Shown here in pieces: positions 27,601-50,997 of a stretch of 64,000 bases of DNA; the first letter of the stretch is position 1, and every line of letters begins with the position of its first letter. Source of the stretch: an uncultured SAR86 cluster bacterium (GTDB taxonomy: Bacteria; Pseudomonadota; Gammaproteobacteria; Magnimaribacterales; D2472). The stretch covers positions 10,462 through 74,461 of the forward strand of contig CACDVW010000002.1 in assembly GCA_902556355.1 (NCBI GenBank), written 5' to 3'. The notes beneath the pieces were generated by a model that searched no databases, had not been told where the DNA came from, and saw only the letters and a list, made by a program, of their open reading frames with translations. A program made the translations under genes and the position numbers.

Positions 27601-28803
27601 TCTCTCAACTAATTTTTTAGCAGCTTTAATAGTTGTAGCTAGCTCTCGTTGTTCAAGTTTTCCATAAACAAAGGGCTTGAATAACTCAAGTGCCATTTTC
27701 TTAGGTAAGCCACATTGGTGTAATTTTAAATTTGGGCCAGAAACAATAACTGATCTTCCTGAATAATCTACCCTTTTACCCAACAGATTTTGTCTAAATC
27801 TTCCGCCTTTACCTTTAATCATATCAGCGAGAGATTTAAGAGGTCTTTTGTTTGTTCCTGTTATAACTCTTCCTCTTCTTCCATTATCTAGAAGTGCATC
27901 AACAGATTCTTGTAGCATTCTCTTTTCATTTCTTACAATAATCTCTGGAGCACTAAGCTCTAGCAATCTTTTAAGTCTGTTATTTCTATTGATAACTCTT
28001 CTATAAAGATCGTTAAGGTCAGATGTAGCAAATCTTCCTCCCTCAAGAGGTACAAGCGGTCTAAGATCAGGTGGTAATACTGGTAATACATCCATTATCA
28101 TCCACTCTGGTCTGTTACCAGATTCGTTAAATGCCTCAAGAAGCTTTAAACGCTTTGAAAGTTTTTTTAGCTTTGTTTCAGAATTAGTTTGAGGTATTTC
28201 TTCTCTAATTTCTCTAATTTCTTCATTGATATCTAACTCTTCAAGAAGAATTTTTACAGCTTCAGCACCCATACCAGCAGAGAACTCATCACCAAATTCT
28301 TCATATTTCTCAACCCATTCTTCTTCAGTAAGAATTTGTCCCTTTTCAAGTTCAGTAAGGCCTGGATCAGTAACAATATAGCTTTCAAAATAAAGAACTC
28401 GTTCAATTTCTCTTAGAGTGGTGTTTAGAAGAAGTCCAATTCTTGATGGCAAGGACTTAAGAAACCAAATATGAGCAACAGGAGCAGCCAAATCGATATG
28501 ACCCATTCTTTCTCTTCTTACTTTTGCGAGAGTAACCTCAACTCCACATTTTTCACATACAACCCCTCTATGCTTCATTCTTTTGTACTTACCACAGATG
28601 CATTCATAATCCTTGATAGGTCCAAATATTTTTGAACAAAATAAACCGTCTCTTTCAGGTTTAAAGGTTCTGTAGTTAATAGTTTCAGGTTTTTTTACTT
28701 CACCAAAAGACCAAGATTTTATTACCTGAGGAGAAGCTAGACCCGCAGAAATGGTTGTGAAATCATCCTGTCCTGTTTTTAAAGAATTTAATAAGTCTCT
28801 CAA
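24622..28803 (-). CDS. rpoC: DNA-directed RNA polymerase beta' subunit
   Basis: 1393 aa, [12 protein letters not shown] catalytic motif, N-terminal zinc-binding cysteines. Confidence 0.98.
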
Positions 28804-28812
28804 TTTTATCTC

Positions 28813-31800: not shown

Positions 31801-32874
31801 ATCTGCTCTAAGTGTGTTTGAAATATATGGTCCTTTATCTAACTCATTAATAAATAAGCATGAAATCTCGTTAATATTATTTTCTTTTAAGGCCTCTAGA
31901 ACAGCCTCATCGATTTCTGTGTTTGCAACAAATAAAACTTCACCAGTTTCTTTATTAAAAATGTCTTTTGAAAGAACCTTGCCAAAAAGAAATTGCTCAT
32001 CTAATGTGATTTCACTTACTTTTGCATTTGATAATTCTTTGATATGTCTTGCTGTAATTCTTTTGCCAGCCTCTACATAGACCTTACTTTTAACCTTAAG
32101 GTCAACAGGTAAAGTTTCACCTCTAAGTCTTTCTGGTATAAGAGCAAGTTTAACGGTGTCTTTTTCTAAAGTGAAAATATCCTCATCATAAAACTCAGAC
32201 AATATTTCCTCTGTACCCATATCTAATGCTCTTAGCATTATTGTTGCAGGTATCTTTCTTCTTCTATCAATACGACTAAACAGAATGTCTTTAGGATCAA
32301 ACTCAAAATCTAGCCATGAACCTCTGTAAGGAATTATTCTTGCAGAATATAAAACTTTTCCTGAAGAATGAGTCTTACCTTTATCATGATCATAAAAAAC
32401 ACCAGGAGACCTATGAAGCTGAGATACAACAACCCTTTCAGTTCCATTTACAATAAAAGATGCATCAGAAGTCATTAAAGGAACTTCTCCCATAAACACT
32501 TCGCCTTCTTTTATATCTTTTACTTCTTTAAAGTTTGATTCTCTATCATAGAGAACTAATTTAACTTTGATTCTTAGGGGTGCGGAATATGATAAACCTT
32601 GTATTAAGCATTCTTGAACATCATAAGTGTTCTTTCCTAGCTCATATGAAACATATTCAAGAGCAGCATTACCTGAAACACTTTTAATTGGAAATAATGA
32701 CTGGAAAACTTCTTCAAGTCCCTGTTTTTTCCTTGCTTCAGGCGCCACATCAGCTTGTAAAAATTCAGAATAAGATTTTGTTTGGGTTTCAATAAGGTTA
32801 GGAAGATCCATGACCTTTGCAAAAGTACCAAAGTTTTTTCTTATTCTTTTCTTTTCTGTATAACTGTATGACAT
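28813..32874 (-). CDS. rpoB: DNA-directed RNA polymerase beta subunit
   Basis: 1353 aa, colinear with RpoB ([33 protein letters not shown] rif cluster). Confidence 0.98.
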
Positions 32875-36049: not shown

Positions 36050-36125
36050 TGGCAGGCCAGGAGGGTCTCGAACCCACAACCCCCGGTTTTGGAGACCGGT
36101 ACTCTACCAATTGAGCTACTGGCCT
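36050..36125 (-). tRNA. tRNA-Trp (anticodon CCA)
   Basis: 76 nt, AGGCCAG acceptor stem, GGTTCGAGACC T-arm, anticodon loop CUCCAAA, encoded CCA. Same tuf-tRNATrp-secE position as in Pseudomonas. Confidence 0.93.
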
Positions 36126-36158
36126 AAAATTAATTTTCATATTCCTCAGAGACAAGCA

Positions 36159-36182
36159 AGCCGAGACACAAAGGTCTCGGCT
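36159..36182 (-). terminator. GC-rich hairpin just after tuf (possible attenuator or processing site; no clean U-tract)
   Basis: Minus strand: AGCCGAGAC-CTTTGT-GTCTCGGCT, a perfect 9-bp stem, followed by TGCTTGTCTC. Confidence 0.4.
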
Positions 36183-36195
36183 AATAAGTCTTCAA

Positions 36196-37386
36196 TTACT
36201 CAATAATTTTTGATACTACGCCAGCACCAACTGTTCTTCCACCTTCTCTAATCGCAAATTTTAGACCTTCGTCCATAGCGATTGGAGCAATAAGCTCAAC
36301 ATTCATTTTAATGTTGTCACCAGGCATTACCATTTCAACACCACTTGGAAGCTCACAAGCACCAGTTACATCAGTTGTTCTAAAATAAAACTGAGGTCTG
36401 TAGTTATTCATGAATGGTGTATGTCTTCCACCCTCATCTTTACTTAGCACATATATCTCAGCTTCAAATTTTGTATGAGGTGTAATTGAACCAGGCTTAG
36501 CAATAACTTGACCTCTTTCAACAGCATCTCTTTCAACACCTCTAAGAAGAACACCACAGTTTTCACCAGCTCTTCCTTCATCCAAAGATTTTCTAAACAT
36601 TTCCACACCAGTACATGTAGTCGTAGATGTGTCTTTGATACCAACAATTTCTAAAGGATCACCAGTATTGACTATACCAGTTTCGATTCTGCCTGTTACC
36701 ACTGTACCTCTACCTGAAATAGTAAACACATCTTCAATAGGCATTAGGAAAGCACCATCTACTGGTCTTTCTGGCTCTGGTACATATGAGTCTAATGTTT
36801 CAATAAGTTTTTGAACTGAAGGAACACCAATTTCAGATGTATCACCCTCAAGAGCTTTTAGCGCGCTACCAACAATGATAGGAGTGTCATCACCTGGGAA
36901 ATCATATTCGTTTAATAGCTCTCTAATTTCCATTTCAACAAGCTCTATCATTTCTGGATCGTCATTTTGATCAGCTTTGTTCATATAAACAACAATATAT
37001 GGAACACCAACCTGTCTAGCTAAAAGGATATGTTCTCTTGTTTGAGGCATTGGACCGTCAGCAGCACTTACTACTAATATAGCGCCGTCCATTTGAGCAG
37101 CACCAGTAATCATATTTTTTACATAGTCTGCGTGACCTGGACAATCAACGTGTGCATAGTGACGTGCAGTTGAAACATACTCAACATGAGAAGTAGCAAT
37201 AGTAATACCTCTTTCTCTTTCTTCTGGAGCATTATCAATATTTGCAAAGTCAACAGCGTCTCCGCCGAATACTTCAGCAGCAACTTTTGTTAGTGCAGCT
37301 GTAAGTGTTGTCTTACCATGGTCAACGTGACCAACTGTCCCTACGTTTACGTGGGGAAGCGTTCTTTCAAATTTTTCTCTTGCCAT
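36196..37386 (-). CDS. tuf: Translation elongation factor Tu
   Basis: 396 aa starting [32 protein letters not shown]. It is the only tuf copy in the window. Confidence 0.98.
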
Positions 37387-37425
37387 TTTTTTTATGCCTC
37401 TCTGAAATAATTAAATATACTTAAA

Positions 37426-37500
37426 TGGAGCTCATAACCGGACTTGAACCGGTGACCTCTTACTTACCAAGCAAGTGCTCTACCGCTGAGCTATATGAGC
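37426..37500 (-). tRNA. tRNA-Thr (anticodon GGU)
   Basis: 75 nt, GCTCATA acceptor stem, anticodon loop UUGGUAA, GGTTCAAGTCC T-arm, encoded CCA. Equivalent to thrT upstream of tufB. Confidence 0.92.
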
Positions 37501-37533
37501 CCGTTCACGTAGCATCCTATTTTAAGGTGGCGT

Positions 37534-37562
37534 ATTATCCCTCTAAAAAGTTATAAACTCAA
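37534..37562 (-). promoter_or_regulatory. Putative sigma70 promoter for tRNA-Thr/tuf
   Basis: Minus strand reads TTGAGT (37557-37562), a 17-nt spacer, GATAAT (37534-37539), then ACGCCAC. This is the same AATACGCCAC -10/discriminator 10-mer as the S10 promoter. Confidence 0.5.
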
Positions 37563-37621
37563 CCTTTTTTCAATATAAATTGGGATTATTTTTGTAGTGT
37601 TTTTTGGTCTTAAAATAGTCA

Positions 37622-37705
37622 TGGTGGAGAGGGTAGGATTCGAACCTACGTAGCCGAAGCGGCAGATTTACAGTCTGCTGGTATTAACCACTCACCCACC
37701 TCTCC
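37622..37705 (-). tRNA. tRNA-Tyr (anticodon GUA)
   Basis: 84 nt with a long variable arm, GGAGAGG acceptor stem, anticodon loop CUGUAAA, GGTTCGAATCC T-arm, encoded CCA. Confidence 0.92.
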
Positions 37706-39202: not shown

Positions 39203-41419
39203 TTATCTCTTTATATTAGAAGCACTTTGTATTTGATCTCTTTTTATTCTTTCAATTTTCTTTTCTTCTATGATCTGATTTGCTTCAGAATTGGACTGAT
39301 TAGATAGATTTGATTGTAGCTGATCATATACACCGGCCCTGCCAATGTATGGATCGAATGTATAATTCGAATTGTCTAAAGAATGTGTTGACGATCTTGA
39401 AAATATAAATTCATATCCATCATCTCTTGAAGAAGTGCTTTGTGTTTGAAGACACTCAAGAAGATATGCTGAAGCTGAATATTCATCTAAAGAATAGCTG
39501 AAAATAGTTTCTCCATTCTGATAACAGCTTACATACCATGTCCAATATCCAGATTCTATAGTTGCATAAGCAGTTCCACCATTTACATTTTCTACCCAAT
39601 ATCCAACCCAACCAAATGAACCCTGGGAAATTTTTTCAATAGCGTAGTTATACATTTCATTTGCTACCCTAGTCAAAAGCTCAGATGTCATATTAAATTC
39701 ATTGTTTTCGAAACTGTAAATATATGGTTTATTTAAAAATTCATTAATGTATTCATTACCTATCTGATTAGGTGGTAAGTTATCTTGATCAAATTCTAGA
39801 AATCCGTATGCATCAGGAAAACTGTCAATGGTCTCATTATCCCAACTTAAATAAACTGCTGAATTATCATTATAAAATTTGACTGAGGACATCCATTTAT
39901 AATCTACATATGCATAAGCAGAATCACAACTTCCCTCGTAATCTAACCATATATCTGTACTCCTATTTCTGTACATGTCCATGGAATAAGAATCATCGTC
40001 ATAATTATTTGTGTCTGTGATTATGTAATGTTTGTAAACTTCACAAGAACTATCTATTGAGTTTATGTACTCATCCGTTTCCATTCTTTCTAAACCTCTG
40101 CTGGTTTCTTTTTGAAGCAAGTATGAAATTTCAGAATCATATAGTGCCGCAGAATCATCTCCAAAAAGATCACTAGCAATATTGAGTGTGCAGTAAGATG
40201 ATGGATTTACCCAACAAGGACGACTAGCCCTCATTAACTTATTATCGTTAGTAATAAACATTGGATTAATATGAATAAAAAAACTTTCATCCCATCCGTT
40301 GAGATTTGCAATGGATACATTTGAATTTGGATCGACATCTACCACAAAATCCCCTCTTAAAGAAATATCATCAACTGATGCAACCTCTTCCCCCAACCAT
40401 AACGATTCTGGATAATCATTGTCATTAAGAAAAATTAATAAATTGCTGTAATGAAGATCTGATGTCGATCTAATTGTGTAATCATTTGAAGAAAATCCTG
40501 TTCCCGATAAAGATGAATCAAGTAAAGATTTTACGTAAGTAATAATATCTGACTCTATTTGAGCCAATGACAGATAAAAACTATCAAGATCATTAAATCT
40601 AGAGGTTATGATTGAGGGTTTATTTGAATTTGACGGATTTTGTTTGATATCTAAATATGAGTATCCTGTCGCATTTTTTTGAAGCTCAATTGCGCTATCA
40701 AATTGATTAGTGATATATGCCTGTTTTTTACTATCAACTATATTACATGGGGTTTCACTATTATATAGATCAGCAGATAAATTAAATAACCCTGAAGATG
40801 TAAGGCTTTTAAATAATGAAGTAAAGCTTGAAATAGTCACATTGGTTTGATTTTGAGTAGGGTTTATGGAGTATAAATAAGAGTCATTAACAGCAACAGG
40901 ATAGTTTTTTAAACATTCTATATTTGCAGTTGACCTAATTTGAAAATTGCCATTAGAGTCTGATGTGCCTGAATATTCATAACTATCAAAAATCCTATTT
41001 TGGTTTTGATCAATATAAACTGTTCTATCTGTATTATCTTCATGAATGATTGTGCCTCCAATCAATAAATAGTTTGCAGTAATAGTTATAGACTTTGATG
41101 TTGATGATCCTTCACTATTTACACACCTCAATGTAAATCTGTAAGTCTTTGATTCATTCAAAGTCAAGCTATGGCTTCCATTTGTATTAACTGTTGTATT
41201 CCAATCGCCAGATGTAGAGCATGATTGCGCATTAGAAGTTGTCCAGCTAAAAGAATACTCAGATCCCACATCTATCTCATCTGATTGATTAGATGAAAAA
41301 TTAATCGTTGGTAAAGGAATTGCTGGAGATTCTGGTGATGCACTTCCTCCGCCTCCACCACCACCGCAGCTGGCAAGAATAAACAAAGGGGCTAATAGAT
41401 AAAAAAATATTTTTTTCAT
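39203..41419 (-). CDS. Large lipoprotein of unknown function (738 aa)
   Basis: Lipobox LFILAS-C followed by a G7 tether (CGGGGGGGSASPESP). An N-terminal Ig-like module follows (FSWTTSNAQSCSTSGDW...TLRCVN). The rest is Asn/Ser/Tyr/Asp/Trp-rich with paired cysteines. I recognise no family. Confidence 0.7.
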   Translation of the reverse strand: MKKIFFYLLAPLFILASCGGGGGGGSASPESPAIPLPTINFSSNQSDEIDVGSEYSFSWTTSNAQSCSTSGDWNTTVNTNGSHSLTLNESKTYRFTLRCVNSEGSSTSKSITITANYLLIGGTIIHEDNTDRTVYIDQNQNRIFDSYEYSGTSDSNGNFQIRSTANIECLKNYPVAVNDSYLYSINPTQNQTNVTISSFTSLFKSLTSSGLFNLSADLYNSETPCNIVDSKKQAYITNQFDSAIELQKNATGYSYLDIKQNPSNSNKPSIITSRFNDLDSFYLSLAQIESDIITYVKSLLDSSLSGTGFSSNDYTIRSTSDLHYSNLLIFLNDNDYPESLWLGEEVASVDDISLRGDFVVDVDPNSNVSIANLNGWDESFFIHINPMFITNDNKLMRASRPCWVNPSSYCTLNIASDLFGDDSAALYDSEISYLLQKETSRGLERMETDEYINSIDSSCEVYKHYIITDTNNYDDDSYSMDMYRNRSTDIWLDYEGSCDSAYAYVDYKWMSSVKFYNDNSAVYLSWDNETIDSFPDAYGFLEFDQDNLPPNQIGNEYINEFLNKPYIYSFENNEFNMTSELLTRVANEMYNYAIEKISQGSFGWVGYWVENVNGGTAYATIESGYWTWYVSCYQNGETIFSYSLDEYSASAYLLECLQTQSTSSRDDGYEFIFSRSSTHSLDNSNYTFDPYIGRAGVYDQLQSNLSNQSNSEANQIIEEKKIERIKRDQIQSASNIKR

Positions 41420-41510: not shown

Positions 41511-42785
41511 CTATTTTCTGTAGATACTAGGCTTGTCTAAATCCTTAATATATCTATCTCTAAGCCTTGTTGATCTTGTAGTTAAATCTGTATCAACACC
41601 ATTAATAAAAACTTTTTCTGGCATGCTTGATGGTTCAAGTGGATCAGCTTCCCAGACTACAATATCGGCCATATTGCCAACTTTAATAGAACCTCTATTG
41701 TTAAGGTTAAATGTCTTTGCAACGTTAGTTGTTAAAGCTTTGATTGCTCCACCGTATGACATTCCATTAGCAACAGCTACTCCAGCACCCTGTCGAATCA
41801 AATGATAATTATGAGACCTTGAAACATTAAACATTAGAGTAGCACCAGCTTTTTCAAGAATTGGTGTCATGTTTATATTTGATGCTAACTCGTCAAATGA
41901 ATTTGGTATATTATTGATTGGGTTAACTATAAGAGGAATGTTATTTTCAACAATTTTATCTGCCACTAAAGATGCCTCTTGTGCTCCCATAATAATTAAA
42001 TTCAGGTTGTAAGTATTTTTTAGCTCAATGAGCTTAATTATGTCTGAAGCTCTGTGGGTTTTTATTATTAAAGGTAAATCATCATTAATTAATCTATATA
42101 GCGCCTTAACGTCTCTAGGTTTGAAATCCATGTGCGATGCAAGAGATGAATCATCAATAACCTCATCAATAGAAGCATCTGATGACATATCTTTTTTATC
42201 AAGCGATGATGCAAAAGAGAGCATGTCATCTATCAAGGTAAGTGTTTCTGCTCTAGAGGAAGACCCGCTTCCACCAAATCTACCAATCATTAAAATATCT
42301 GCTTCGCTTGAAATATCTAAACTGCTGTCTAATAAAAAGAATGAACCCAAGCCTCCGATAGGGCTTGAGGTATTTCTTGGCAGGGTAATTGCAGAAGTTA
42401 TACCGTTTGCTCTATTCCATGGGATTAAAACTGAGTTAGGATTGAAGGCATCATGTATGCTAAAGCCTATGCTATATATAGACGCTTCATCATCTCTAGT
42501 AACACTTAAAGCCCCAATTTCTAGAATACCTAATTGTGTATCAGGGGCAATAAATCCAGGGGTAATTATTTTTCCTTTAGCATCGTAAACCTTATCTGCA
42601 TAAGGAACTGATGTTTTTGAAATTTTAGCAATAACACCATCATTGATTAATATATGTCCTTGATATGAATTATTTTCAATACCATCATAAATTTCAGCAT
42701 TTTTAATAACTAAATTTGATGACTCTAAAAATAGTGAATTAGAAGATAAAATTACAAAAGCTAATAAAAATTTATTTTTAATCAT
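41511..42785 (-). CDS. Secreted amidohydrolase-superfamily paralog lacking the canonical metal ligands
   Basis: 424 aa with a signal peptide. It aligns with the upstream paralog, but HxH is replaced by APDTQ and FHHAVEA by IMGAQEA. It keeps the C-terminal VGNMADIVVWEADPL motif. Confidence 0.7.
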   Translation of the reverse strand: MIKNKFLLAFVILSSNSLFLESSNLVIKNAEIYDGIENNSYQGHILINDGVIAKISKTSVPYADKVYDAKGKIITPGFIAPDTQLGILEIGALSVTRDDEASIYSIGFSIHDAFNPNSVLIPWNRANGITSAITLPRNTSSPIGGLGSFFLLDSSLDISSEADILMIGRFGGSGSSSRAETLTLIDDMLSFASSLDKKDMSSDASIDEVIDDSSLASHMDFKPRDVKALYRLINDDLPLIIKTHRASDIIKLIELKNTYNLNLIIMGAQEASLVADKIVENNIPLIVNPINNIPNSFDELASNINMTPILEKAGATLMFNVSRSHNYHLIRQGAGVAVANGMSYGGAIKALTTNVAKTFNLNNRGSIKVGNMADIVVWEADPLEPSSMPEKVFINGVDTDLTTRSTRLRDRYIKDLDKPSIYRK

Positions 42786-44158
42786 TCTTCTATCCTGTTT
42801 TTTGAAGGATTGATAATTCCAACATCGAAATCACTACTTGGTTCAAGACCTGAAGATCTATCAAAAGCTATTGCACCATCTATATAAACCTTTTCTGCTA
42901 AAGCATATATGCTAAATGGATTTTTAGACCACAAAACAACATCAGCATTCTTCCCAACTTTTAATGATCCAGTCTTATCATAAATTCCAGCTGCTTTTGC
43001 AGGATTGCTTGTAATCCAATTTATTGCCCGTGCTTTCGAAATATCATAGCCGGCTTTGATGCCAGCCGATAAAGCTTTGGCAGCCTCAACATTTAGATGT
43101 TGAATGCCTATCTCGTCATCGGAATGAACAATTGCACAGCCTGTTCCATTTCTAGCTTGATCAACAATAGCTATATTTGCCTGGACCATATCATAGGCTT
43201 CATGTTTAAAACCCCACCAGTCAGCCCAAAGAGCTGCGCAGATATTATTCTCAGCTAATAAATCAGCAATCTTGTATGCTTCAACTGCATGATGAAAAGC
43301 AGTAATTTTATAATTAAACTCTTTGGCTATTTCTATCATTGTTGCCATTTCATCTGCTCTGTAACAATGGTTATGAACTAAAATTTCATCTCTTAAAACA
43401 CCCGCTAAAGTTTCCAATTCAAGATCTCTAGTTGGTTTGTATGACAGTTCTTTTGCCTCCTCAGATTTCGCTTCATATTCATCCAATTTACTCAAATAAC
43501 TCTCAGCTTTTATCCATGATTTTCTGTATCCGGCTGCATTCCCCATTCTTGTTGATGGCATTTGATTTCTATTGCCATAGACTCTTTTGGGGTTCTCTCC
43601 ACATGCCATCTTCAAGGAGTGAGGTGCATCAGGAAATTTCATAGAATTAATAGTATTTCTTTGTAAATTTTTCGCCGTAACCCCTCTTCCACCAATTAAA
43701 TTTGCAGAACCTGGTAGAACATGGAAGGTTGTAACACCTCCCTTAAGAGCGAGAGCGTACTGAGGATCTTGAACCCATATAGAATGTTCGGCCCATACTT
43801 CAGCAGTAACTGGGCTAGTCGCCTCATTACCATCTGAACTTGTTCTGACACTTGGTGCAGGATAGACACCCATGTGAGAATGAATATCAATAATACCTGG
43901 AGTAATCCATTTACCGGATGCATCAACTTCAATTAAGTCAGCAGAACTGGGAAGATCAACACCCATTGCAACAACTTTGCCATCTTTAATAATCAAATCG
44001 GTATCAATTAATTCATTTCCTTCGCCGTCATAAATGTTTGCATTTCTAAAAATAGTATTTGTTGATGGCAAAGGCTCGTAAGTTGATTCAAAGGGTTTAA
44101 AGTTTTCAGCAACTATTGATACACAAAAAAAGTATAGGAATATGTATATATTTTTCAT
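42782..44158 (-). CDS. Secreted metal-dependent amidohydrolase (COG1228-like)
   Basis: 458 aa with a signal peptide, ITPGIIDIHSHMG (HxH), AFHHAVEA, AIVHSDD, VGKNADVVLW. ATGA overlap with the downstream paralog. Confidence 0.8.
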   Translation of the reverse strand: MKNIYIFLYFFCVSIVAENFKPFESTYEPLPSTNTIFRNANIYDGEGNELIDTDLIIKDGKVVAMGVDLPSSADLIEVDASGKWITPGIIDIHSHMGVYPAPSVRTSSDGNEATSPVTAEVWAEHSIWVQDPQYALALKGGVTTFHVLPGSANLIGGRGVTAKNLQRNTINSMKFPDAPHSLKMACGENPKRVYGNRNQMPSTRMGNAAGYRKSWIKAESYLSKLDEYEAKSEEAKELSYKPTRDLELETLAGVLRDEILVHNHCYRADEMATMIEIAKEFNYKITAFHHAVEAYKIADLLAENNICAALWADWWGFKHEAYDMVQANIAIVDQARNGTGCAIVHSDDEIGIQHLNVEAAKALSAGIKAGYDISKARAINWITSNPAKAAGIYDKTGSLKVGKNADVVLWSKNPFSIYALAEKVYIDGAIAFDRSSGLEPSSDFDVGIINPSKNRIEE

Positions 44159-44227
44159 ACCAATAGTATAAATAAAAAAAATTTATACACTATAATCTTA
44201 GAAATATTTTTAGTATCAAAATTTATT

Positions 44228-45280
44228 ATGAAATCCTATAAAGTGGTTAAAAGTGGGGAACCGCTTGAAGAACAGCAAATAGATAAGCCTTCTCCTTCAG
44301 GTAAAGAAATTCTTATCAAAACAATTTCATGCGGTGTTTGCCATACAGATATACATATTCATGATGGTTATTTTGACTTAGGTGATGAAATTCATATTCC
44401 ATCAAGAGTAACTGAGAATCTAGCTATGGGCCATGAAGTTTTTGGAGAAGTTGTAGAAGTTGGTGAGCAGGTTACAAATATACAAATTGGCAAAAAATAC
44501 GTTGTATATCCGTGGATTGGTTGTGGTAATTGCAATGAATGTCAAAATGATATGGAGCACTATTGCTCACCCTTTACGGCTGAAAATATTGGCGTTTCTG
44601 TTGATGGTGGTTACGGAGAATACGTTTTAGTAAAAGATGCTAAATATCTTTTTGATGCTGGAGATACTCCAGAAGAGCTAGCCGGCAGTTATGCATGCAG
44701 AGGCTTAACTGCATACAGCGCCTTAAAAAAAGCAGAAATCAAGGACGGTGAAAGTATCGTAATAATTAGTGCTGGTGGAATGGGATTGTTAGCATTAAAG
44801 ATTGCACAAGCAGCATATAACGTTAAGACAATAGTTGTAGACATTGATGATGATAAGCTAGATGTGGCTAAAAAAGCTGGTGCAAATAATGTAATAAATT
44901 CAAAAAGTGAAAATGCTTCTGAAGAGATCATAAAATTATCTGGAGGCAAAGTTACAAAAATTATTGATTTTGTTGGATCACAAAACTCAATGTCTTTTGG
45001 ATATGGTCTTTTTGGCATTAATAAGGGCGGTTTGTATGTTCTAGTTGGATTAATTGGAGGTAATTTTAATCTTCAACTACCTCTGCATACTTTTACAGCT
45101 CGAACAATTAAAGGTGCATATGTTGGAAGTTTAAAAGAGATGGGTGAGCTTATGGAGCTTGTGCGATCTGGTAAAATTGAACCAATAGAAGTAGAGGCTA
45201 GACCTGCCTCACAAGCTAGTGATACACTATCTGACCTTAAGTCAGGTCACATAAAAGGATTGGTCTGTCTTAAACATTAA
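44228..45280 (+). CDS. Zinc-dependent alcohol dehydrogenase family oxidoreductase
   Basis: 350 aa; catalytic-zinc motifs CGVCHTD and GHE, structural-zinc CGNCNECQ...C, Rossmann motif SAGGMG. Confidence 0.85.
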   Translation: MKSYKVVKSGEPLEEQQIDKPSPSGKEILIKTISCGVCHTDIHIHDGYFDLGDEIHIPSRVTENLAMGHEVFGEVVEVGEQVTNIQIGKKYVVYPWIGCGNCNECQNDMEHYCSPFTAENIGVSVDGGYGEYVLVKDAKYLFDAGDTPEELAGSYACRGLTAYSALKKAEIKDGESIVIISAGGMGLLALKIAQAAYNVKTIVVDIDDDKLDVAKKAGANNVINSKSENASEEIIKLSGGKVTKIIDFVGSQNSMSFGYGLFGINKGGLYVLVGLIGGNFNLQLPLHTFTARTIKGAYVGSLKEMGELMELVRSGKIEPIEVEARPASQASDTLSDLKSGHIKGLVCLKH

Positions 45281-45285
45281 TTTGC

Positions 45286-45564
45286 ATGAATAAATACATT
45301 AAATCAAAACTAGTTTTATTTTTTGGAATTTTTTTCATTGCATCTCTTTCTGCTGATCCATTACTTCATGATCATATTGACGAGCATGAATCTGAATCTA
45401 TTGTTGAATGTCAACTTTGCGAAAACAAGACTGTTGATCTTAAAAATTCAGATTCAGAAATCAGCGAATTAATCCAAATTTCTTTTGTTGAAGAGTTAAC
45501 CCCTGATAATTCTTCTTTTAAAGACACAAGCAACTATCTATCTCGAGCTCCACCAAAAAAATAA
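45286..45564 (+). CDS. Small secreted protein with HDHIDEH and CQLC motifs (92 aa)
   Basis: Signal-peptide-like N-terminus (LVLFFGIFFIASLSA), then DPLLHDHIDEHESESIVECQLC. It lies 5 nt after adh and 41 nt before the His-rich receptor. No SD sequence, so the coding call is moderate. Confidence 0.55.
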   Translation: MNKYIKSKLVLFFGIFFIASLSADPLLHDHIDEHESESIVECQLCENKTVDLKNSDSEISELIQISFVEELTPDNSSFKDTSNYLSRAPPKK

Positions 45565-45605
45565 ATTTTTTAGATTTTAAATTTTTATTTTTTTAAGGAG
45601 TTCTT

Positions 45606-47858
45606 ATGAAAAAACTTTTAAGCACACTAATAATAATAGGTGCTATACACACAAACGAAATTGCTTCACAGGATGTTGAAGAGATTATCGTGGTTACGTC
45701 TGCTTTGATAGACACAACCGAAATTACAAACCCATTGTACGTTATAGACGGCGATGAGATTATCGATGATGCAACAACAAGCCTAGGAGATGCTATTGAT
45801 AGCTATCTTGGAGTTTCTATTGCAGATTATGGTGCTGCTGTTGGACAGCCAATAATTAGAGGCATGTCAGGTCCTAGAGTAAAAATTCTAAAAAATGGAA
45901 TGGTGAATAGAGATGTTTCTGGTCTTGGTGCAGATCACTTAAATGATGTTGATCTTAATGATATTGAACAAATAGAAATTGTTAAGGGTCCATCCTCATT
46001 ACTATATGCCAATGGAACTATTGGGGGAATCATTAATGTTGTAGATGACTGCATCGCAGCAATAAATTACGAGCTTCCTGAATTGAAAGTTGGTTATGAA
46101 ACTCAATCAGTGAATGATGGTTCATCTGAATTCATTAACTTTAAAAATAATTTCAATGGCTTTAACGTTAACTTTGGTTATAAAAATACTGAATTTGGAA
46201 ATTATGATATTCCCAATGGTGCGATAATGCATGAAGAGGAAGATCACGATGATCATGGTGATGAAGAACATCACGACGAAGATGAGCATGAAGAAAATCT
46301 CGGATTTGTTAATAATTCTGACTTTGCTGTAGAGGCTACGAAATTTGGTATTTCAAGAGCAGGTGACTGGGGTTATGTTGGTGTTTCAGTGGACAACCTT
46401 GAAAGTTTATATGGAATCCCTTTCCATGGTGACGATCATGGTGACGAACATGGAGATGAGCATGATGAGGATGAACATCACGACGAAGATGAGCATGATG
46501 AGGATGAGCATCACGATGAACATGGTGAGGAAAGAATTTTCTCAACAACAGATTCTGAAAGCTTTACTATAAAAGGTTCCTATAATGTTAATGGCAATTT
46601 AGTTAACAAAATTGACTATACATATAGAGATACTGAGTACACCTTAACTGAAGCGCATGCCGAAGAAGAGGGACATGATGAACATGAAGACGAAGAGGAA
46701 CATGAAGAACATGCTCCAACAGTTTTTGCTAACAATGCCACTGAATATGGTGCGATTTTTGATATCTCAAATGACATAAGAACTCAAAAATTATCATTTA
46801 ATTATGTTGATGAAGATTCTTCAATAGTTGGAGAAGAGGCATTCATGAATCCCGCAAATAATGAAGTTCTAACACTTGGTTATTTTTTAGGTCAAGATTT
46901 TGATATGTTTCATCTAGATTTGGGAATTAGATTAGATCAAGTTACAAGAACTGGAAGCGTTACTGATGAAGATCATGGCGATGTAGATAATTTTACTATC
47001 GATGATGATGTTTCAAGCTTTGCTGTCAGTATTGGAAGAGATCTTTCTGATACATTAGAGTTAAATCTCGGCTTTTCTAGCGTAGAGAGACTGCCATCTG
47101 TAATTGAATTATTTATGAATGGTCCTCATATGGCTACAGGTAGATTTGAAGTTGGAGATCCTACACTAAGTTCTGAAACTTCTAATAATTTTGATATTTC
47201 ATTAAATTTTGATAATGGAGAATATTTTGCAAGTGCAAGCTTCTTTATTAACGATGTAGATAACTATATTGCTTTAATTGATGAAGATGAAGACCATGAA
47301 GATGAGCATCATGAGGAAGAGCATCATGAAGATGAAGAAGAGCATCATGAAGATGAAGACGATCATGCAGACGAGCATGTTCATGGTCATGGCAATCTTA
47401 TTCATGCCAATTATGTTCAAGAAGATGCTGAGTTTGATGGATACGAAATTGAATTTGGAAGAACATTTGATTTAGGCGCTGGTGAAATGACATTATCTTT
47501 TGGTAGAGATGTTGTAAATGCTCAATTTACAGATGGTCATAACGTACCAAGAATAAATCCTGCAAGAAATGTTTATTCACTTTCATATGCTCAAGATGAC
47601 ATAGTCTTTAAGTTACATTTAAAAGATGTTGAAAAACAAAATGATGTTGGTGAAGGCGAAACAGCTACTGCCGGATATCAAATGCTGGACACAAGACTGA
47701 CTAAGACATTTGATTTAAGTGGAAAAAGTAAGCTTAAAGTTTCACTATTTGGAAGAAACCTTCTAGATGAGGTTGCAAGAAATCATGCTTCTTTTGTTAA
47801 AAATGAAGTTCCTCTTCCAGGAAGAAACTATGGAATTAAATTTAATTTAACTTACTAA
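45606..47858 (+). CDS. TonB-dependent outer-membrane receptor with four His/Asp/Glu-rich insertions (putative metal receptor)
   Basis: AAGGAG SD; signal peptide; TonB-box-like EEIIVVTS; plug (IEIVKGPSSLLYANGTIGGIINV); C-terminal barrel ending NYGIKFNLTY. His-rich patches lie at 46227-46296, 46425-46532, 46656-46712 and 47280-47405. Confidence 0.88.
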   Translation: MKKLLSTLIIIGAIHTNEIASQDVEEIIVVTSALIDTTEITNPLYVIDGDEIIDDATTSLGDAIDSYLGVSIADYGAAVGQPIIRGMSGPRVKILKNGMVNRDVSGLGADHLNDVDLNDIEQIEIVKGPSSLLYANGTIGGIINVVDDCIAAINYELPELKVGYETQSVNDGSSEFINFKNNFNGFNVNFGYKNTEFGNYDIPNGAIMHEEEDHDDHGDEEHHDEDEHEENLGFVNNSDFAVEATKFGISRAGDWGYVGVSVDNLESLYGIPFHGDDHGDEHGDEHDEDEHHDEDEHDEDEHHDEHGEERIFSTTDSESFTIKGSYNVNGNLVNKIDYTYRDTEYTLTEAHAEEEGHDEHEDEEEHEEHAPTVFANNATEYGAIFDISNDIRTQKLSFNYVDEDSSIVGEEAFMNPANNEVLTLGYFLGQDFDMFHLDLGIRLDQVTRTGSVTDEDHGDVDNFTIDDDVSSFAVSIGRDLSDTLELNLGFSSVERLPSVIELFMNGPHMATGRFEVGDPTLSSETSNNFDISLNFDNGEYFASASFFINDVDNYIALIDEDEDHEDEHHEEEHHEDEEEHHEDEDDHADEHVHGHGNLIHANYVQEDAEFDGYEIEFGRTFDLGAGEMTLSFGRDVVNAQFTDGHNVPRINPARNVYSLSYAQDDIVFKLHLKDVEKQNDVGEGETATAGYQMLDTRLTKTFDLSGKSKLKVSLFGRNLLDEVARNHASFVKNEVPLPGRNYGIKFNLTY
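46455..46520 (+). repeat. Tandem 33-nt (11-codon) duplication encoding DEHDEDEHHDE x2 inside the receptor
   Basis: 46455-46487 and 46488-46520 differ at 2 positions. Confidence 0.9.
47319..47360 (+). repeat. Tandem 21-nt (7-codon) duplication encoding EHHEDEE/D x2 inside the receptor
   Basis: 47319-47339 and 47340-47360 differ at 1 position. Confidence 0.9.
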
Positions 47859-47883
47859 ATTAGATTTTTTCAATTAATATAGG

Positions 47884-47918
47884 CCCCCAAACTTTAAATA
47901 AGGTTTGGGGGTTTTTTT
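47884..47918 (+). terminator. Rho-independent terminator after the His-rich receptor
   Basis: CCCCCAAAC (47884-47892) pairs with GTTTGGGGG (47903-47911), followed by T7 (47912-47918). Confidence 0.85.
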
Positions 47919-47924
47919 AATATT

Positions 47925-48329
47925 ATGAAATCACAACTTACATCAGATAAATTTGCAATGTCGTTTTCAGCTATATGCATGATTCATTGCCTATTTGCTC
48001 CATCTTTAATAATTTTTTCATATAGCTCTTTGGCATTAACTGTCGAAAGTGAGCTTATTCATAAAGCTATATTGCTTTTAACTATTCCAGTTAGCATCTT
48101 TGCAATTAGCTTGGGATATAAAAATCATTCAAATAACTCCATTATTTATACTGGCATTGCTGGATTAACAATTCTTATTTCAGCGCTCTTAGTTGGAGAA
48201 AGTATTGGTGAAAATGCAGAACTAATTTTAACTATTATTGGTTCACTGATGGTAATTGCATGTCATTACAGAAACTATCGAATCTGTAAAAAAGTAAATT
48301 GTGACTGTCACGAAACTTCAGAAGCTTAA
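47925..48329 (+). CDS. Small 4-TM membrane protein with Cys/His motifs, MerC-like
   Basis: 134 aa. The N-terminal DKFAMSFSAICMIHCLFAP resembles, from my memory, the LCxxHCxxxP start of MerC-domain proteins. Four hydrophobic segments, ACHY in the last TM, cytoplasmic tail CDCH. No HMM was run. Confidence 0.55.
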   Translation: MKSQLTSDKFAMSFSAICMIHCLFAPSLIIFSYSSLALTVESELIHKAILLLTIPVSIFAISLGYKNHSNNSIIYTGIAGLTILISALLVGESIGENAELILTIIGSLMVIACHYRNYRICKKVNCDCHETSEA

Positions 48330-48405
48330 AATTTTAAATTCTAAAATTTTCATTAATTACTTTCATAGCAAATATATTGTAGAATGCGCTCTTTTACGTC
48401 ATAAC

Positions 48406-50997
48406 ATGATTAAACATATTAAATTCATATACTTATTATTATTAAGTCCATTCATCATGGCTAACTCAAATGTTGAAGAGATAGTTACAACTGGGTCATT
48501 AATTAATAATTCAGAAAAAGATGCATCACCAGTAAATGTTATAACTAAAGAAGATTTTGAAAATTTTAATATTTCTAATTTTGCAGAAATTAGCAAATAC
48601 CTAACATCATCATCTGGTTCGCATTTCCAAACAAATGCACTTGAGGGAGTTGATCAAGGAATGGCCTCAATAACCTTAAGAGGTTTAGATCACTCCTCTA
48701 CTCTGCTGCTACTTAATTCAAAGAGACATACTTTTGCTGGAACACCCTCAAATCAAGGTGAAGGATACATAGATGTAAACATAGTTCCTGAAATAGCAAT
48801 CAAGCAAATTGAAGTTTTAAAAGAAGGAGCTACTTCACTATATGGATCTGATGCCGTTGCAGGTGTTGTAAATGTTTTAACTCAGAAAGATTTTGAAGGA
48901 TTTAAATTAAGAATTAATAACTTTGAAACTTTAAATTATAGTCAGAGTGATAAATCTTTAGGTTTATTAGTAGGATCAAATTACAAAAATGGTAGCTACG
49001 TATTTGGTCTTAATATACTAGAAAGATCAGCTCTGTCTGCCTCTGAAATACCTGGAATAGCAGAACTTGGTCTTAGTGGCTTAGGTAAAACCTTTAAAAT
49101 TTCTTCTGATGATACGGTTAGTGACGGTTTATATTCAGGTAATTATAATGCTAATCAATTTGTACCTGACCCTGAATGTGAGGCAAATGGAGGCGTATTA
49201 GATGGATCTTTTTGCAGATTCTTATACGGTACCAGATTTAATATAGTGAATGATGAAGATCATTCCAAGGCATATGCCAATTTATTGTTTGAAAGAAGCA
49301 ATTATGTTTATGAGATAACCTTTATGGGATCAGCTGTTGAAGTAAATGATAACCCTCAATCACCCTCATACCCCGCTCTTCCTTTTTTATCGAGACAAAT
49401 TCAACCAAATCAAGGTGGAAATCCTTTTAATGTCCCAGTTACTTGGTATGGACGCCCTCTTGGATCTGAATTTGATTCCCCATATTCTCCTAAGGATATA
49501 AAACAATATAATCTTAGTCAGACAATCAATACTAATATTAATGAAAGCACTGAACTAGAGGCCTCTTTAACTACTAGCAGTCACTCTAATGATCATTACA
49601 GGCCAGATATTATCGATTCGAGGTTCCTAGAAGCATTAAATGGTACAACCATGGGACAATCTAATGGAAGTCTTATGTATTGGAATATTTTTGATTCATC
49701 TCAAAATTCTCAAGATTTAATTGATTATGTAAAAGGTGCAGAGGTTTCGTCAAAAGAAGCATCTTTAACAACTCTTGATTTTATATTTAGAACTAACATA
49801 GATAACTACGAAATTGCTTATGGTCTTCAGCTGAATGATGAAGAGCTTAAAATTTCATACGATGATGTTAGTAGAGCTCAGTTTGATTCAGATGGCAAAA
49901 TTATTAAATCAGCAGATCTATTCTTTTTGGGTGGAGGTATAAATGTCTCAAAAAATAGAAATAAATATGCTGGTTTTTTTGAAATTCAGCCCAAGCCAAT
50001 AGAAAAAATTGATATCAAAATTGCTGGTAGATTTGAAGAGTTTGAGAATGACTCATCATTTGACCCTAAAATCTCTTTTAAATATATCGCATCTGAAAAT
50101 ATAACTTTAAGGGCTTCTAGAAGTTCATCTTTTTCTATGCCCTCCATGGCACAAATGTTTTCAAGTGATATTAACCTAGGAAGCGTAAGAGACTTTGACG
50201 GCAATTCACCATTTGTTAGGCAAGCACAAATCGGTAACCCAAACCTTAAACCTGCAACCTCTAAAAATTTAAATATTGGACTTATTTATGAAAATCAAAA
50301 ACATAGACTCAGTATTGATTATTGGAATATCGATTACAAAAATAGAATAGAGGCTCAAAGTGCACAAGTAATTCTTAATACAGACCCAAATGGTCCAAGT
50401 ATTACAAGAAATTCTAATGGCGATTTAATTGGAGTCACGACAACCTATTTCAATGAAGAGTCAACTGAAGTTTCAGGAGTTGATATAAGTTTTAATAGAC
50501 TTTTAGCAAGCTCAGATAAATTTGGAAATGTATCACTATCAGTAAACTCAACAACTTTAATAGAATTTCTTACACCAGCTCTTGGAAATGAAGGTGGTGA
50601 AATCATGATAAATAGAGTTGGTAAATTTAATTACGATACTAATACCCATTCTCTTCCCAAAAATAGAATCAATGCTTTTTTAAATTGGAATTATCAAGAT
50701 TACGATATTAATTTAAATTCACGATATATTGATGGGTATAGCAATGAGCGGCCGATTAATAGTCTTGGAACATCATATGGATATAACAATTCTGTAGATT
50801 CATTTTTTGTTCATGACCTTTCAGTAAAAAAATTGTTAATAACAAATAAAGGTGAAATTGATATCAAGCTATCGGTCATTAATGTTTTTGATGAGGCAGC
50901 TCCAAGACTTTATGACGCTCCAGATTTTAGCTTTGATACAAGGGTTCATGATCCAAGAGGAAGAATTATTGGTATAAGTTTTGAGTATAGAAACTAA
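48406..50997 (+). CDS. TonB-dependent outer-membrane receptor (863 aa)
   Basis: Start placed at MIKHIKFIYLLLLSPFIMA (signal peptide). TonB box EEIVTTGS, plug IEVLKEGATSLYGSDAVAGVVNV, long barrel. The ORF-track start at 48301 overlaps the previous gene. Confidence 0.85.
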   Translation: MIKHIKFIYLLLLSPFIMANSNVEEIVTTGSLINNSEKDASPVNVITKEDFENFNISNFAEISKYLTSSSGSHFQTNALEGVDQGMASITLRGLDHSSTLLLLNSKRHTFAGTPSNQGEGYIDVNIVPEIAIKQIEVLKEGATSLYGSDAVAGVVNVLTQKDFEGFKLRINNFETLNYSQSDKSLGLLVGSNYKNGSYVFGLNILERSALSASEIPGIAELGLSGLGKTFKISSDDTVSDGLYSGNYNANQFVPDPECEANGGVLDGSFCRFLYGTRFNIVNDEDHSKAYANLLFERSNYVYEITFMGSAVEVNDNPQSPSYPALPFLSRQIQPNQGGNPFNVPVTWYGRPLGSEFDSPYSPKDIKQYNLSQTINTNINESTELEASLTTSSHSNDHYRPDIIDSRFLEALNGTTMGQSNGSLMYWNIFDSSQNSQDLIDYVKGAEVSSKEASLTTLDFIFRTNIDNYEIAYGLQLNDEELKISYDDVSRAQFDSDGKIIKSADLFFLGGGINVSKNRNKYAGFFEIQPKPIEKIDIKIAGRFEEFENDSSFDPKISFKYIASENITLRASRSSSFSMPSMAQMFSSDINLGSVRDFDGNSPFVRQAQIGNPNLKPATSKNLNIGLIYENQKHRLSIDYWNIDYKNRIEAQSAQVILNTDPNGPSITRNSNGDLIGVTTTYFNEESTEVSGVDISFNRLLASSDKFGNVSLSVNSTTLIEFLTPALGNEGGEIMINRVGKFNYDTNTHSLPKNRINAFLNWNYQDYDINLNSRYIDGYSNERPINSLGTSYGYNNSVDSFFVHDLSVKKLLITNKGEIDIKLSVINVFDEAAPRLYDAPDFSFDTRVHDPRGRIIGISFEYRN

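Follow-up and report, generated by a model that had tools for sequence, protein, structure and literature searches.

We analyzed a 64-kb stretch of SAR86 DNA with a G+C content of ~34% (the window) and identified in it a gene pair in which a small exported open reading frame (ORF), gene 1, lies directly ahead of gene 2, which encodes a ZnuD-like TonB-dependent receptor. We propose, with a probability of about 0.65, that gene 1 encodes an arrest peptide and that this peptide gates translation of gene 2 through an RNA hairpin that hides the gene 2 Shine-Dalgarno sequence. The sequence analysis itself gives the motifs and their constant spacing, the association of gene 1 with the receptor gene, the hairpin prediction, and the resemblance to ZnuD; we infer that arrest takes place and responds to metal, which metal is involved, which way the control runs, and how the receptor loops are oriented. 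The features that carry the proposal are the following.

45286-45564, + strand: gene 1, a 92-aa exported upstream ORF (uORF) and candidate metal-sensing translation-arrest peptide, CruR/CutF-like
45367-45369 (His28) to 45409-45420 (Cys42-x-x-Cys45), + strand: putative metal-sensing segment of gene 1, from the family alignment
45544-45555, + strand: RAPP arrest-motif codons (R87-A88-P89-P90), two codons before the stop
45545-45603, + strand: predicted two-tier RNA hairpin, from the minimum free energy (MFE) fold and its recurrence in homologues
45606-47858, + strand: gene 2, a 750-aa ZnuD-like TonB-dependent receptor with Pfam Plug and barrel domains

Gene 1 has the features of an arrest-peptide upstream ORF

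The gene 1 product has a Lys-rich N terminus followed by the hydrophobic core LVLFFGIFFIASLSA, which is conserved in the family alignment and which we judged by inspection to be an export signal. Beyond it lie HDHIDEH (residues 28-34), CQLC (residues 42-45), and RAPP (residues 87-90 of 92). An exhaustive HMMER search collected a family of ~40 clusters at 50% identity, with proteins of ~90 aa. The only features conserved in the alignment of this family are the hydrophobic N terminus, His28, Cys42-x-x-Cys45, and a terminal S-R-A-P-P with two residues after it. His28 and Cys42 are invariant, and Cys45, Arg87, Ala88, Pro89, and Pro90 are each conserved in at least 90%.

The distance from CxxC to RAPP is 41 residues in 137 of 146 distinct sequences, 40 in 7, and 42 in 2. 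Two residues follow RAPP in 137 of the 146 relatives, and RGPP replaces RAPP in one subfamily. The linker between the two motifs is nearly free in sequence and fixed in length; its identity falls to 35 to 40% where the MerC-like product of gene 3, described below, is still >90% identical and the receptor is ~77% identical. In all six frames of the 64-kb window, RAPP or RGPP occurs a single time, at these gene 1 codons. Since conservation is confined to His28, CxxC, and a terminal RAPP held at a constant distance, we read gene 1 as an arrest-peptide uORF. In its architecture it would belong to the CruR/CutF type, and a regulatory role accounts for it better than metal shuttling does. A first-pass annotation of this DNA had suggested that it might be a periplasmic or tethered shuttle, and the conserved His28/CxxC/RAPP pattern fits an arrest-peptide uORF instead.

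Gene 1 belongs to no Pfam family, and a profile search with the family found no member with any Pfam domain. The DUF2946 model (PF11162) matched neither gene 1 nor any of 31 family members at E ≤ 1. One match of 1138 aa (P0131) was rejected as spurious; it is a eukaryotic FN3-repeat phosphatase. The family is invisible to Pfam and its members are labeled "hypothetical," which is an annotation gap.

A predicted hairpin pairs the RAPP codons with the gene 2 Shine-Dalgarno sequence

The spacer between gene 1 and gene 2 is 41 nt long (45565-45605), AT-rich, and almost C-free. It contains no C-rich rut-like sequence and no operator-like sequence. The spacer and the end of gene 1 are predicted to fold together into the two-tier hairpin. 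In its outer stem, GAGCUCC (45545-45551), which is part of the Arg-Ala-Pro codons, pairs with the segment that carries the gene 2 Shine-Dalgarno sequence, GGAGUUC (45597-45603). In its inner stem, 45555-45565 (Lys codons, the stop codon, and AUU) pairs with a U-rich run at 45584-45594. The MFE is -17.6 kcal/mol versus a mean of -6.2 for shuffled sequences (z = -5.57), and 0 of 200 shuffles were as stable.

The same topology was the MFE fold in 26 of 26 distinct homologous sequences, including three divergent subfamilies. In the first of these (L013), the Pro codons are CCU-CCU and the Shine-Dalgarno sequence with which they pair is AGGAGG; in the second (L017), the RGPP codons pair with AGGAG; and in the third (L018), CCUUU pairs with AAAGG. 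The z-scores across homologues ranged from -6.3 to -1.7, and 90% of the stem positions scored were paired, versus 39 to 70% in slid controls. We consider the predicted hairpin well supported by thermodynamics and recurrence and not proven by covariation.

Gene 2 encodes a ZnuD-like receptor with four His/Asp/Glu patches

The gene 2 product matched the Plug (PF07715, 71.8 bits) and TonB_dep_Rec barrel (PF00593, 92.5 bits) models of Pfam. Its best match among 24 NCBIfam families was ZnuD (NF038289; 212.6 bits, E = 1.2e-62), a score far below the curated cut-off of 950 bits for that model; the haem model gave 103 bits and the TonB-copper (OprC-type) model TIGR01778 gave 49 bits. The best match in the PDB was ZnuD of Neisseria meningitidis (4rdr), with an E value of 7e-33 when the single sequence was searched and 1.4e-43 when a profile was used, and OprC was a far weaker match. 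In HMMER alignments, Asp110, His111, and His508 of gene 2 fall on the ZnuD zinc ligands Asp99, His100, and His499, and all three residues are invariant in 32 orthologues. By these comparisons, gene 2 is a ZnuD-like cation receptor outside the curated ZnuD equivalog, and its ligand is most likely zinc. The protein database searches with genes 2 and 3 filled up with near-identical SAR86 sequences, and no distant relatives or names emerged from them.

The receptor has 41 His residues and a single Cys. Four patches, each 75 to 87% His, Asp, or Glu, hold 32 of the His residues.

46221-46304, + strand: patch 1 (aa 206-233), predicted extracellular loop 2, flanked in a low-confidence model by strands 186-197 and 240-251
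46425-46538, + strand: patch 2 (aa 274-311), extracellular loop 3 by alignment to ZnuD
46650-46721, + strand: patch 3 (aa 349-372), predicted extracellular loop 4
47274-47390, + strand: patch 4 (aa 557-595), predicted extracellular loop, the next after the loop with His508

Patch 2 is anchored to loop 3 because its start, HGDDHGDEHGD at residues 274-284, aligns to cluster 1 of ZnuD loop 3 (HSHEYDDCHAD). An AlphaFold2 model of gene 2 had a predicted local distance difference test (pLDDT) score of 35.8 and was built on a shallow alignment (sequences of ≥86% identity plus one of 54%), and we used only its strand pattern. In that pattern, each patch is flanked by strand pairs that are joined on the other side by turns of 2 to 4 residues. 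From the anchor and the strand pattern, we infer that all four patches lie on the extracellular side.

The patches occur at the same positions, with different lengths, in orthologues of ~50% identity, and one clade has a fifth patch. Because these positions recur across such orthologues, the patches are not chance low complexity. The DNA that encodes them consists of imperfect tandem repeats of 9 to 33 nt (46425-46531 and 47281-47419). Patch length also varies among close relatives, and the reading frame breaks within the repeats in several copies from metagenomes or metagenome-assembled genomes (L005, L007, L033, and L064); these differences could be slippage-driven variation or assembly error.

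Gene 1 is conserved with gene 2, and genes 3 and 4 are not

Three further features lie downstream of gene 2.

47881-47921 (hairpin 47881-47914), + strand: intrinsic terminator-like hairpin and U-tract, 15 pairs followed by T7, in the gap between gene 2 and gene 3
47925-48329, + strand: gene 3, a 134-aa MerC-family four-helix membrane protein (Pfam PF03203)
48406-50997, + strand: gene 4, a second TonB-dependent receptor, 863 aa from its ATG, with Plug and barrel domains

Every locus examined that has a gene 1-type ORF has the same type of receptor 38 to 70 nt downstream. For three distant gene 1 relatives (33 to 35% identity), each recovered locus has a gene directly downstream. A tblastn search found gene 2-like sequence in 7 of 8 such loci, at 48 to 65% identity, and the eighth has only a 61-aa fragment. 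The three full-length receptors examined behind these distant relatives are all rich in His, Asp, and Glu. In the distant loci, an alpha/beta hydrolase gene lies upstream of gene 1, and genes for an MFS transporter, a DUF4396 protein, and then a CDF exporter lie downstream; we found no MerC gene in them. At one such locus (L013, 5163-10296), the MFS transporter, the DUF4396 membrane protein, and the CDF (Cation_efflux) exporter are possible alternative inner-membrane partners.

The order of genes 1 to 4 is kept in 75 of 75 window-type loci, as far as each locus extends. In these loci the entire neighborhood is kept, from the amidohydrolase genes through lpxC and including rnr and rlmB, and since the whole neighborhood is syntenic, adjacency within this clade carries little weight. 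Judged by conservation across loci, we take the gene 1-gene 2 pair, which forms the conserved core, to be the functional unit.

Gene 3 matched the Pfam MerC model PF03203 over all of its profile positions (1-108 of 108) with 88 bits, versus a cut-off of 27.6. Its predicted helices span residues 2-35, 40-67, 69-90, and 98-123 in a low-confidence model (pLDDT, 52.2). It carries CMIHC at residues 18-22, ACHY at 112-115, and a CDCH tail at 126-129, and ten of its residues (C18, H21, C22, H46, H68, H114, C121, C126, C128, and H129) show no variation among the three genomic contexts in which the gene occurs. These invariant Cys and His residues argue for a role in metal handling. The single-cell genome AG-390-J18 encodes a gene 3 product with 100% identity to the one here, and 12 of 12 genome matches were to SAR86 or unclassified marine Gammaproteobacteria. 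There are no mer genes in the window or in ~90 related loci, and we found nothing in the literature on MerC-like proteins outside mer systems.

The MerC-like genes of other SAR86 clades do not adjoin a ZnuD-like receptor gene. In one clade, a cupin-MerC pair lies between metY and a nuclease-like gene. In a second context, MerC is part of a cluster with genes for a GMC oxidoreductase, a Cupin_2 protein, a 121-aa membrane protein, and a methyltransferase, and at a further locus a di-iron-oxygenase-like gene ends 3 nt before MerC. Tight linkage of MerC to cupin, oxidoreductase, or oxygenase genes was seen at L011/L012 (9599-10399), L092 (1112-5363), and L090 (369-1909), and the same 4 Cys and 5 to 6 His residues are still invariant there. 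In these clades, the MerC-like protein may deliver metal to metalloenzymes.

The terminator ahead of gene 3 is kept, with compensatory changes in its stem, in 28 distinct relatives, and the gene 3 ATG lies 8 to 11 nt past the U-tract. Because a conserved terminator lies just before the ATG, expression of gene 3 would require either read-through or a promoter overlapping the terminator. The sole Shine-Dalgarno-like run before gene 3 (GGGGG, 47906-47910) is 14 nt upstream of the ATG, within the 3' arm of the terminator, and translation of gene 3 may also be structurally limited. In the window clade, gene 3 may receive a low level of read-through transcription and could act downstream of the receptor.

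Gene 4 has 11 His residues and no His-rich patch, no arrest-peptide ORF precedes it, and it is adjacent only in the clade in which the whole neighborhood is syntenic. We rejected gene 4 as a member of the unit, as no evidence links it, and it is probably independent of the gene 1-gene 2 pair. For gene 4, the longest ORF has a GTG start overlapping the 3' end of gene 3 (48301-48405 region), and a start at the ATG at 48406 yields a normal signal peptide. Gene 4 may have a promoter of its own, since an extended -10-like element, TGTAGAAT, is present at 48378-48385.

The first-pass annotation had described four co-oriented genes 5 nt behind an alcohol dehydrogenase (ADH) gene, and our ORF analysis found the genes, their sizes, their motifs, and the gap as it gave them. 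Its count of about 33 His residues in the four receptor patches is close to our 32. The NF038289 score, the 4rdr match, and the alignment of patch 2 to ZnuD loop-3 cluster 1 bear out its comparison of gene 2 with zinc receptors such as ZnuD, as the PF03203 score does its description of gene 3 as MerC-like. The domain models that it suggested detected the Plug, TonB_dep_Rec, and MerC domains, and DUF2946 was not detected in gene 1. It had also joined all four genes into one module, and this grouping does not hold: the gene 1-receptor pair occurs without MerC, MerC occurs elsewhere, a terminator separates them, and gene 4 is unlinked. Co-conservation was found for gene 1 with the receptor and not for MerC with the receptor, since MerC accompanies the receptor in the window-type loci and not in the other clades, an outcome that in part goes against the first-pass model on its own terms. 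The C-terminal RAPP of gene 1, the hairpin between the RAPP codons and the Shine-Dalgarno sequence, and the terminator at 47881-47914 had been missed.

Proposed mechanism and alternative explanations

We propose that the four expandable His/Asp/Glu surface loops of gene 2 would bind a borderline divalent cation, in all likelihood Zn(II), and would pass it to a buried site of the ZnuD type, made up of Asp110 and His111 on the plug and His508 on a loop. A ribosome translating gene 1 would arrest with Pro89 and Pro90 of RAPP in its P and A sites. At the point of arrest, the signal peptide, His28, and Cys42-x-x-Cys45, 41 residues upstream, would be just out of the exit tunnel. By our estimate of the geometry, the arrested ribosome would cover roughly 45538-45565, which includes both 5' arms of the hairpin, and would leave free the gene 2 Shine-Dalgarno sequence, ~30 nt beyond its edge. 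The receptor would be translated only for the duration of the arrest, with the hairpin otherwise burying its Shine-Dalgarno sequence. Metal bound to the emerging His/CxxC segment would alter the pulling force on the nascent chain and hence the duration of the arrest. For an uptake receptor, metal would be expected to shorten the arrest and turn the receptor off.

Several observations weigh against this model. Arrest and metal response are read throughout from motifs and structure prediction. The second Cys of CxxC is absent from six full-length or truncated gene 1 relatives. PF11162 did not match gene 1 or nine of its relatives even at E ≤ 10, and because the DUF2946 model misses gene 1 and its relatives, homology to CruR and CutF is unproven. 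Covariation in the hairpin is weak, with double changes at 2 pairs only, and two divergent subfamilies have z-scores of ~-1.7, marginally better than those of shuffles. RNAalifold on a MAFFT alignment of the spacer keeps only the four invariant pairs CUCC:GGAG, a result that we attribute to indels and register shifts in that alignment. Moreover, GCU-CCA codons and an AAGGAG Shine-Dalgarno sequence are both expected in an AT-rich genome, and the pairing could be partly incidental. In the receptor, the fourth ZnuD ligand, Glu340, could not be aligned to gene 2, including in a PDB search with a gene 2 fragment, and the loops are assigned from a single alignment anchor and from the way strands alternate in a low-confidence model. 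To our knowledge, every characterized CruR/CutF system senses copper, not zinc.

The last of these points raises an alternative in which the arrest peptide and the receptor work as we propose and the metal is copper, or else Co, Ni, or Cd, so that the pair would be a copper-uptake switch. CxxC is the copper-sensing motif of CruR, as CxxxC is of CutF, and such uORFs head copper-related operons. Binding of Cu(II), Ni, and Co by His/Asp/Glu loops is also established coordination chemistry. The receptor speaks against copper, with 212.6 bits on the ZnuD model versus 49 bits on TIGR01778 and a far weaker PDB match to OprC; it also has a single Cys, and the Cys/Met copper site of OprC needs more than one. 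Gene 1 has no DUF2946 match, and His28 beside CxxC would suit a tetrahedral Zn(Cys)2(His) site, a point that is not decisive. We regard a metal other than zinc as unlikely. Less probable again is that gene 1 is a periplasmic or tethered metallochaperone that hands the cation from the receptor to the MerC-like carrier for import independent of an ABC transporter, with gene 4 as a second entry point. Gene 1 is exported and has His and Cys ligands, gene 3 is a true MerC-family member with invariant Cys and His residues, the order of the four genes is kept in all 75 window-type loci, and no ABC importer is nearby; the MFS and DUF4396 genes behind the receptor elsewhere would fit a variable single-component inner-membrane partner. 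However, a chaperone would keep a fold, and gene 1 keeps 3 to 4 ligand residues and RAPP with a free linker. The adjacency in the window clade is uninformative, MerC occurs elsewhere without a ZnuD-like receptor, gene 1-receptor pairs occur without MerC, the conserved terminator separates genes 2 and 3, and gene 4 is unlinked. A receptor-to-MerC route independent of an ABC importer is possible in the window clade and finds no support here.

The two remaining alternatives concern the hairpin, and we give little credence to either. Gene 1 might act exactly as CruR of Bordetella does, with the arrest blocking Rho-dependent termination in the intergenic region and with no translational hairpin. 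CruR is the closest characterized RAPP uORF ahead of a TonB-dependent transporter gene. However, the CruR intergenic region is 162 nt long, lies in a GC-rich locus, and has a rut site, whereas the spacer here is 41 nt, almost C-free, and predicted to fold into a hairpin that sequesters the Shine-Dalgarno sequence, as in the CutF mechanism; action through Rho is very unlikely here. The RAPP motif and the hairpin might instead be incidental, gene 1 being a fast-evolving secreted protein and gene 2 being constitutive or regulated by a transcription factor elsewhere. The weak covariation and the possibility of a chance anti-Shine-Dalgarno sequence from codon usage would agree with this. Set against it are the conservation of RAPP in at least 90% of representatives of the 50%-identity clusters, with constant distances to both CxxC and the stop codon, its absence from the rest of the window, its exclusion from proteomes in published work, and hairpin z-scores down to -6.3, and we consider coincidence highly improbable.

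An extended form of the arrest-peptide model is possible, and we hold it only tentatively and think it unlikely in full. In this form, gene 1 would be the first nascent-peptide sensor of zinc (or of a metal other than copper). The His-Cys-Cys mini-site would fold on metal as it leaves the ribosome or SecY, its folding would release the RAPP arrest, and the ribosome-binding site would be re-buried; zinc homeostasis would need no transcription factor of the Zur type, and in the window clade the pair would also be coupled to MerC as a single-protein inner-membrane importer, for a zinc route independent of an ABC importer. If this were true, the pair would be a promoter-independent cassette able to sit behind any gene in a streamlined SAR86 genome.

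If the arrest-peptide model is correct, a major marine lineage tunes a trace-metal receptor by a cis-acting nascent peptide without a dedicated regulator, and the principle of the metal-sensing arrest peptide, shown so far for copper only, extends to a ZnuD-type receptor. SAR86 bacteria are among the most abundant uncultured bacterioplankton, which fits the hundreds of near-identical metagenomic copies of the cluster genes that we found. The unit is compact (92 codons, a 41-nt spacer, and the receptor start), and its expression could mark metal limitation in metatranscriptomes.

Upstream elements and the surrounding locus

The gene that precedes the pair is the following.

44228-45280, + strand: ADH, a Zn-type alcohol dehydrogenase (Pfam ADH_N and ADH_zinc_N), given for context only

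The gap between ADH and gene 1 is 5 nt, and gene 1 is therefore not the first gene of its transcript in the window clade, where ADH probably supplies the promoter and translational coupling to gene 1. The genes upstream of gene 1 differ in other clades, which shows that ADH is not a conserved partner.

We scanned for Zur and Fur operators with consensus sequences of other gammaproteobacteria. The best matches in 43900-48500 had at least 6 mismatches to these consensus sequences. No convincing site emerged either when we searched the cluster and the region upstream of ADH for inverted repeats. The lack of a Zur or Fur box in these scans is in keeping with the arrest-peptide model. The region upstream of ADH and the spacer at 45565-45605 had earlier been suggested as places to look for such operators; neither contains a convincing one, and the spacer is occupied by the predicted hairpin. 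The closest relatives are near-identical upstream of ADH, which makes footprinting uninformative there. A promoter-like element, AGTATAAATAAAAAA..ATACACTATAAT, lies upstream of ADH at 44164-44197 and is common to several SAR86 clades. Within this element, an 8-bp inverted repeat, GTATAAAT-N7-ATTTATAC (at 44166), is perfect only in the closest relatives and is not conserved in other clades.

The neighboring genes encode two secreted amidohydrolases, RNase R (rnr), an rlmB-like product, LpxC, and SecA, and an rRNA operon lies at 57.7-62.6 kb of the window. Our ORF and domain survey of the neighborhood found no binding protein, ABC transporter, or TonB-ExbBD genes adjacent to the cluster, in agreement with the first-pass annotation. 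The two amidohydrolase genes (41511-44158, - strand) are paralogous, ~25% identical, and overlap by 4 nt; the pair is kept in all window-type SAR86 loci and is divergent from ADH across a 69-nt spacer. Immediately upstream of them is a gene (39203-41419, - strand) for a predicted lipoprotein of 738 aa, rich in Asn, Ser, Asp, and Tyr, with LASCGGGGGG at its signal peptide; it matched no Pfam family at E ≤ 0.001. A long run of back-to-back ORFs occupies 8300-37400 on the - strand, including ORFs of 1393 and 1353 aa at 24622-32874, and three tRNA genes (36053-37705) lie at its upstream end. On layout alone, we take this unannotated block for a region of ribosomal-protein and RNA-polymerase genes.

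Comparison with known systems

The closest parallel to gene 1 is CruR (Bp2923, DUF2946) of Bordetella pertussis, a copper-responsive uORF of the operon of the TonB-dependent transporter gene bfrG (PMC9426467). CruR has an export signal, a CXXC motif, and RAPP three residues from its end, with a spacing conserved within 1 to 2 residues, and its arrest is relieved when the nascent chain senses copper (PMC9426467). Like CruR, gene 1 encodes a small exported protein directly before a TonB-dependent receptor gene, with CxxC and with RAPP 2 to 3 residues before the stop, and outside these features its sequence shows little conservation and is predicted to lack structure. The third gene of the CruR operon encodes a four-transmembrane inner-membrane PepSY_TM protein, and the MerC-like gene has the third place here. 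Gene 1 differs from CruR in its length (92 versus 145 aa), in its CxxC-RAPP spacing (41 versus 45), in having no PF11162 match, and in its extra invariant His before CxxC. The intervening region also differs, being a 41-nt AT-rich spacer with a Shine-Dalgarno hairpin here and a 162-nt region with a Rho site in the CruR operon, and the partner receptor here is ZnuD-like, with His/Asp/Glu loops and no link to copper.

In CutF, the first product of the cutFOG operon of Rhodobacter capsulatus, a stem-loop shields the downstream Shine-Dalgarno sequence and stalling opens it (PMC9973294). Gene 1 resembles CutF in its putative Sec signal peptide, in its Cys motif, and in the Pro-rich stalling motif at its C terminus, and a Shine-Dalgarno-shielding stem-loop is likewise predicted here before the next gene. 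CutF, however, controls a multicopper oxidase for detoxification, with copper prolonging the stalling, whereas an uptake receptor follows gene 1 and the opposite polarity would be expected. The Cys motif is CxxC here and CxxxC in CutF, and the 5' arm of the predicted hairpin here is formed by the RAPP codons themselves.

Fujiwara et al. (2025) found that uORFs with a signal peptide and RAPP or RGPP are enriched ahead of TonB-dependent receptor genes in Gram-negative bacteria (PMC12992588). In that work, CruR arrests with two Pro codons in the P and A sites, and RAPP-like motifs are otherwise excluded from proteomes (PMC12992588). Like SecM, ApdA, ApdP, and the peptides of that survey, the gene 1 product is a small exported protein that ends in a RAPP-type arrest core, and it too would arrest with Pro-Pro in the P and A sites. 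Unlike what we propose for gene 1, most characterized RAPP or RGPP arrest peptides monitor protein export, not metals. Among the papers that our literature search listed, none describes a RAPP arrest peptide in SAR86 or ahead of a ZnuD-type receptor gene, and none links CruR or CutF to zinc or ZnuD.

ZnuD of N. meningitidis (4rdr) has a buried zinc site formed by Asp99, His100, Glu340, and His499, and two His/Asp clusters on its extracellular loop 3 act as a "fishing net" (PMC4557270). The plug Asp-His and the loop His of gene 2 align with this site, and the His/Asp-rich loop 3 corresponds to patch 2. Gene 2 differs from ZnuD in having four far longer patches rather than two short clusters in one loop, in having no Zur box that we could find, and in its host, a free-living marine oligotroph and not a pathogen. 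Gene 3 resembles the MerC of Tn21 in its full-length Pfam match, its four predicted helices, its Cys pair in helix 1, and its Cys-rich C-terminal tail. The helix 1 motif of Tn21 MerC is CxxC, whereas C18 and C22 of gene 3 form CxxHC (a CxxxC spacing); gene 3 also has no mer genes nearby and has five added invariant His residues.

Compared with the logic of CruR and CutF, what would be new here is an arrest peptide that is not recognized by Pfam and is shorter, whose arrest codons are themselves the anti-Shine-Dalgarno sequence, and which precedes a zinc-type receptor gene in an abundant uncultured marine lineage.

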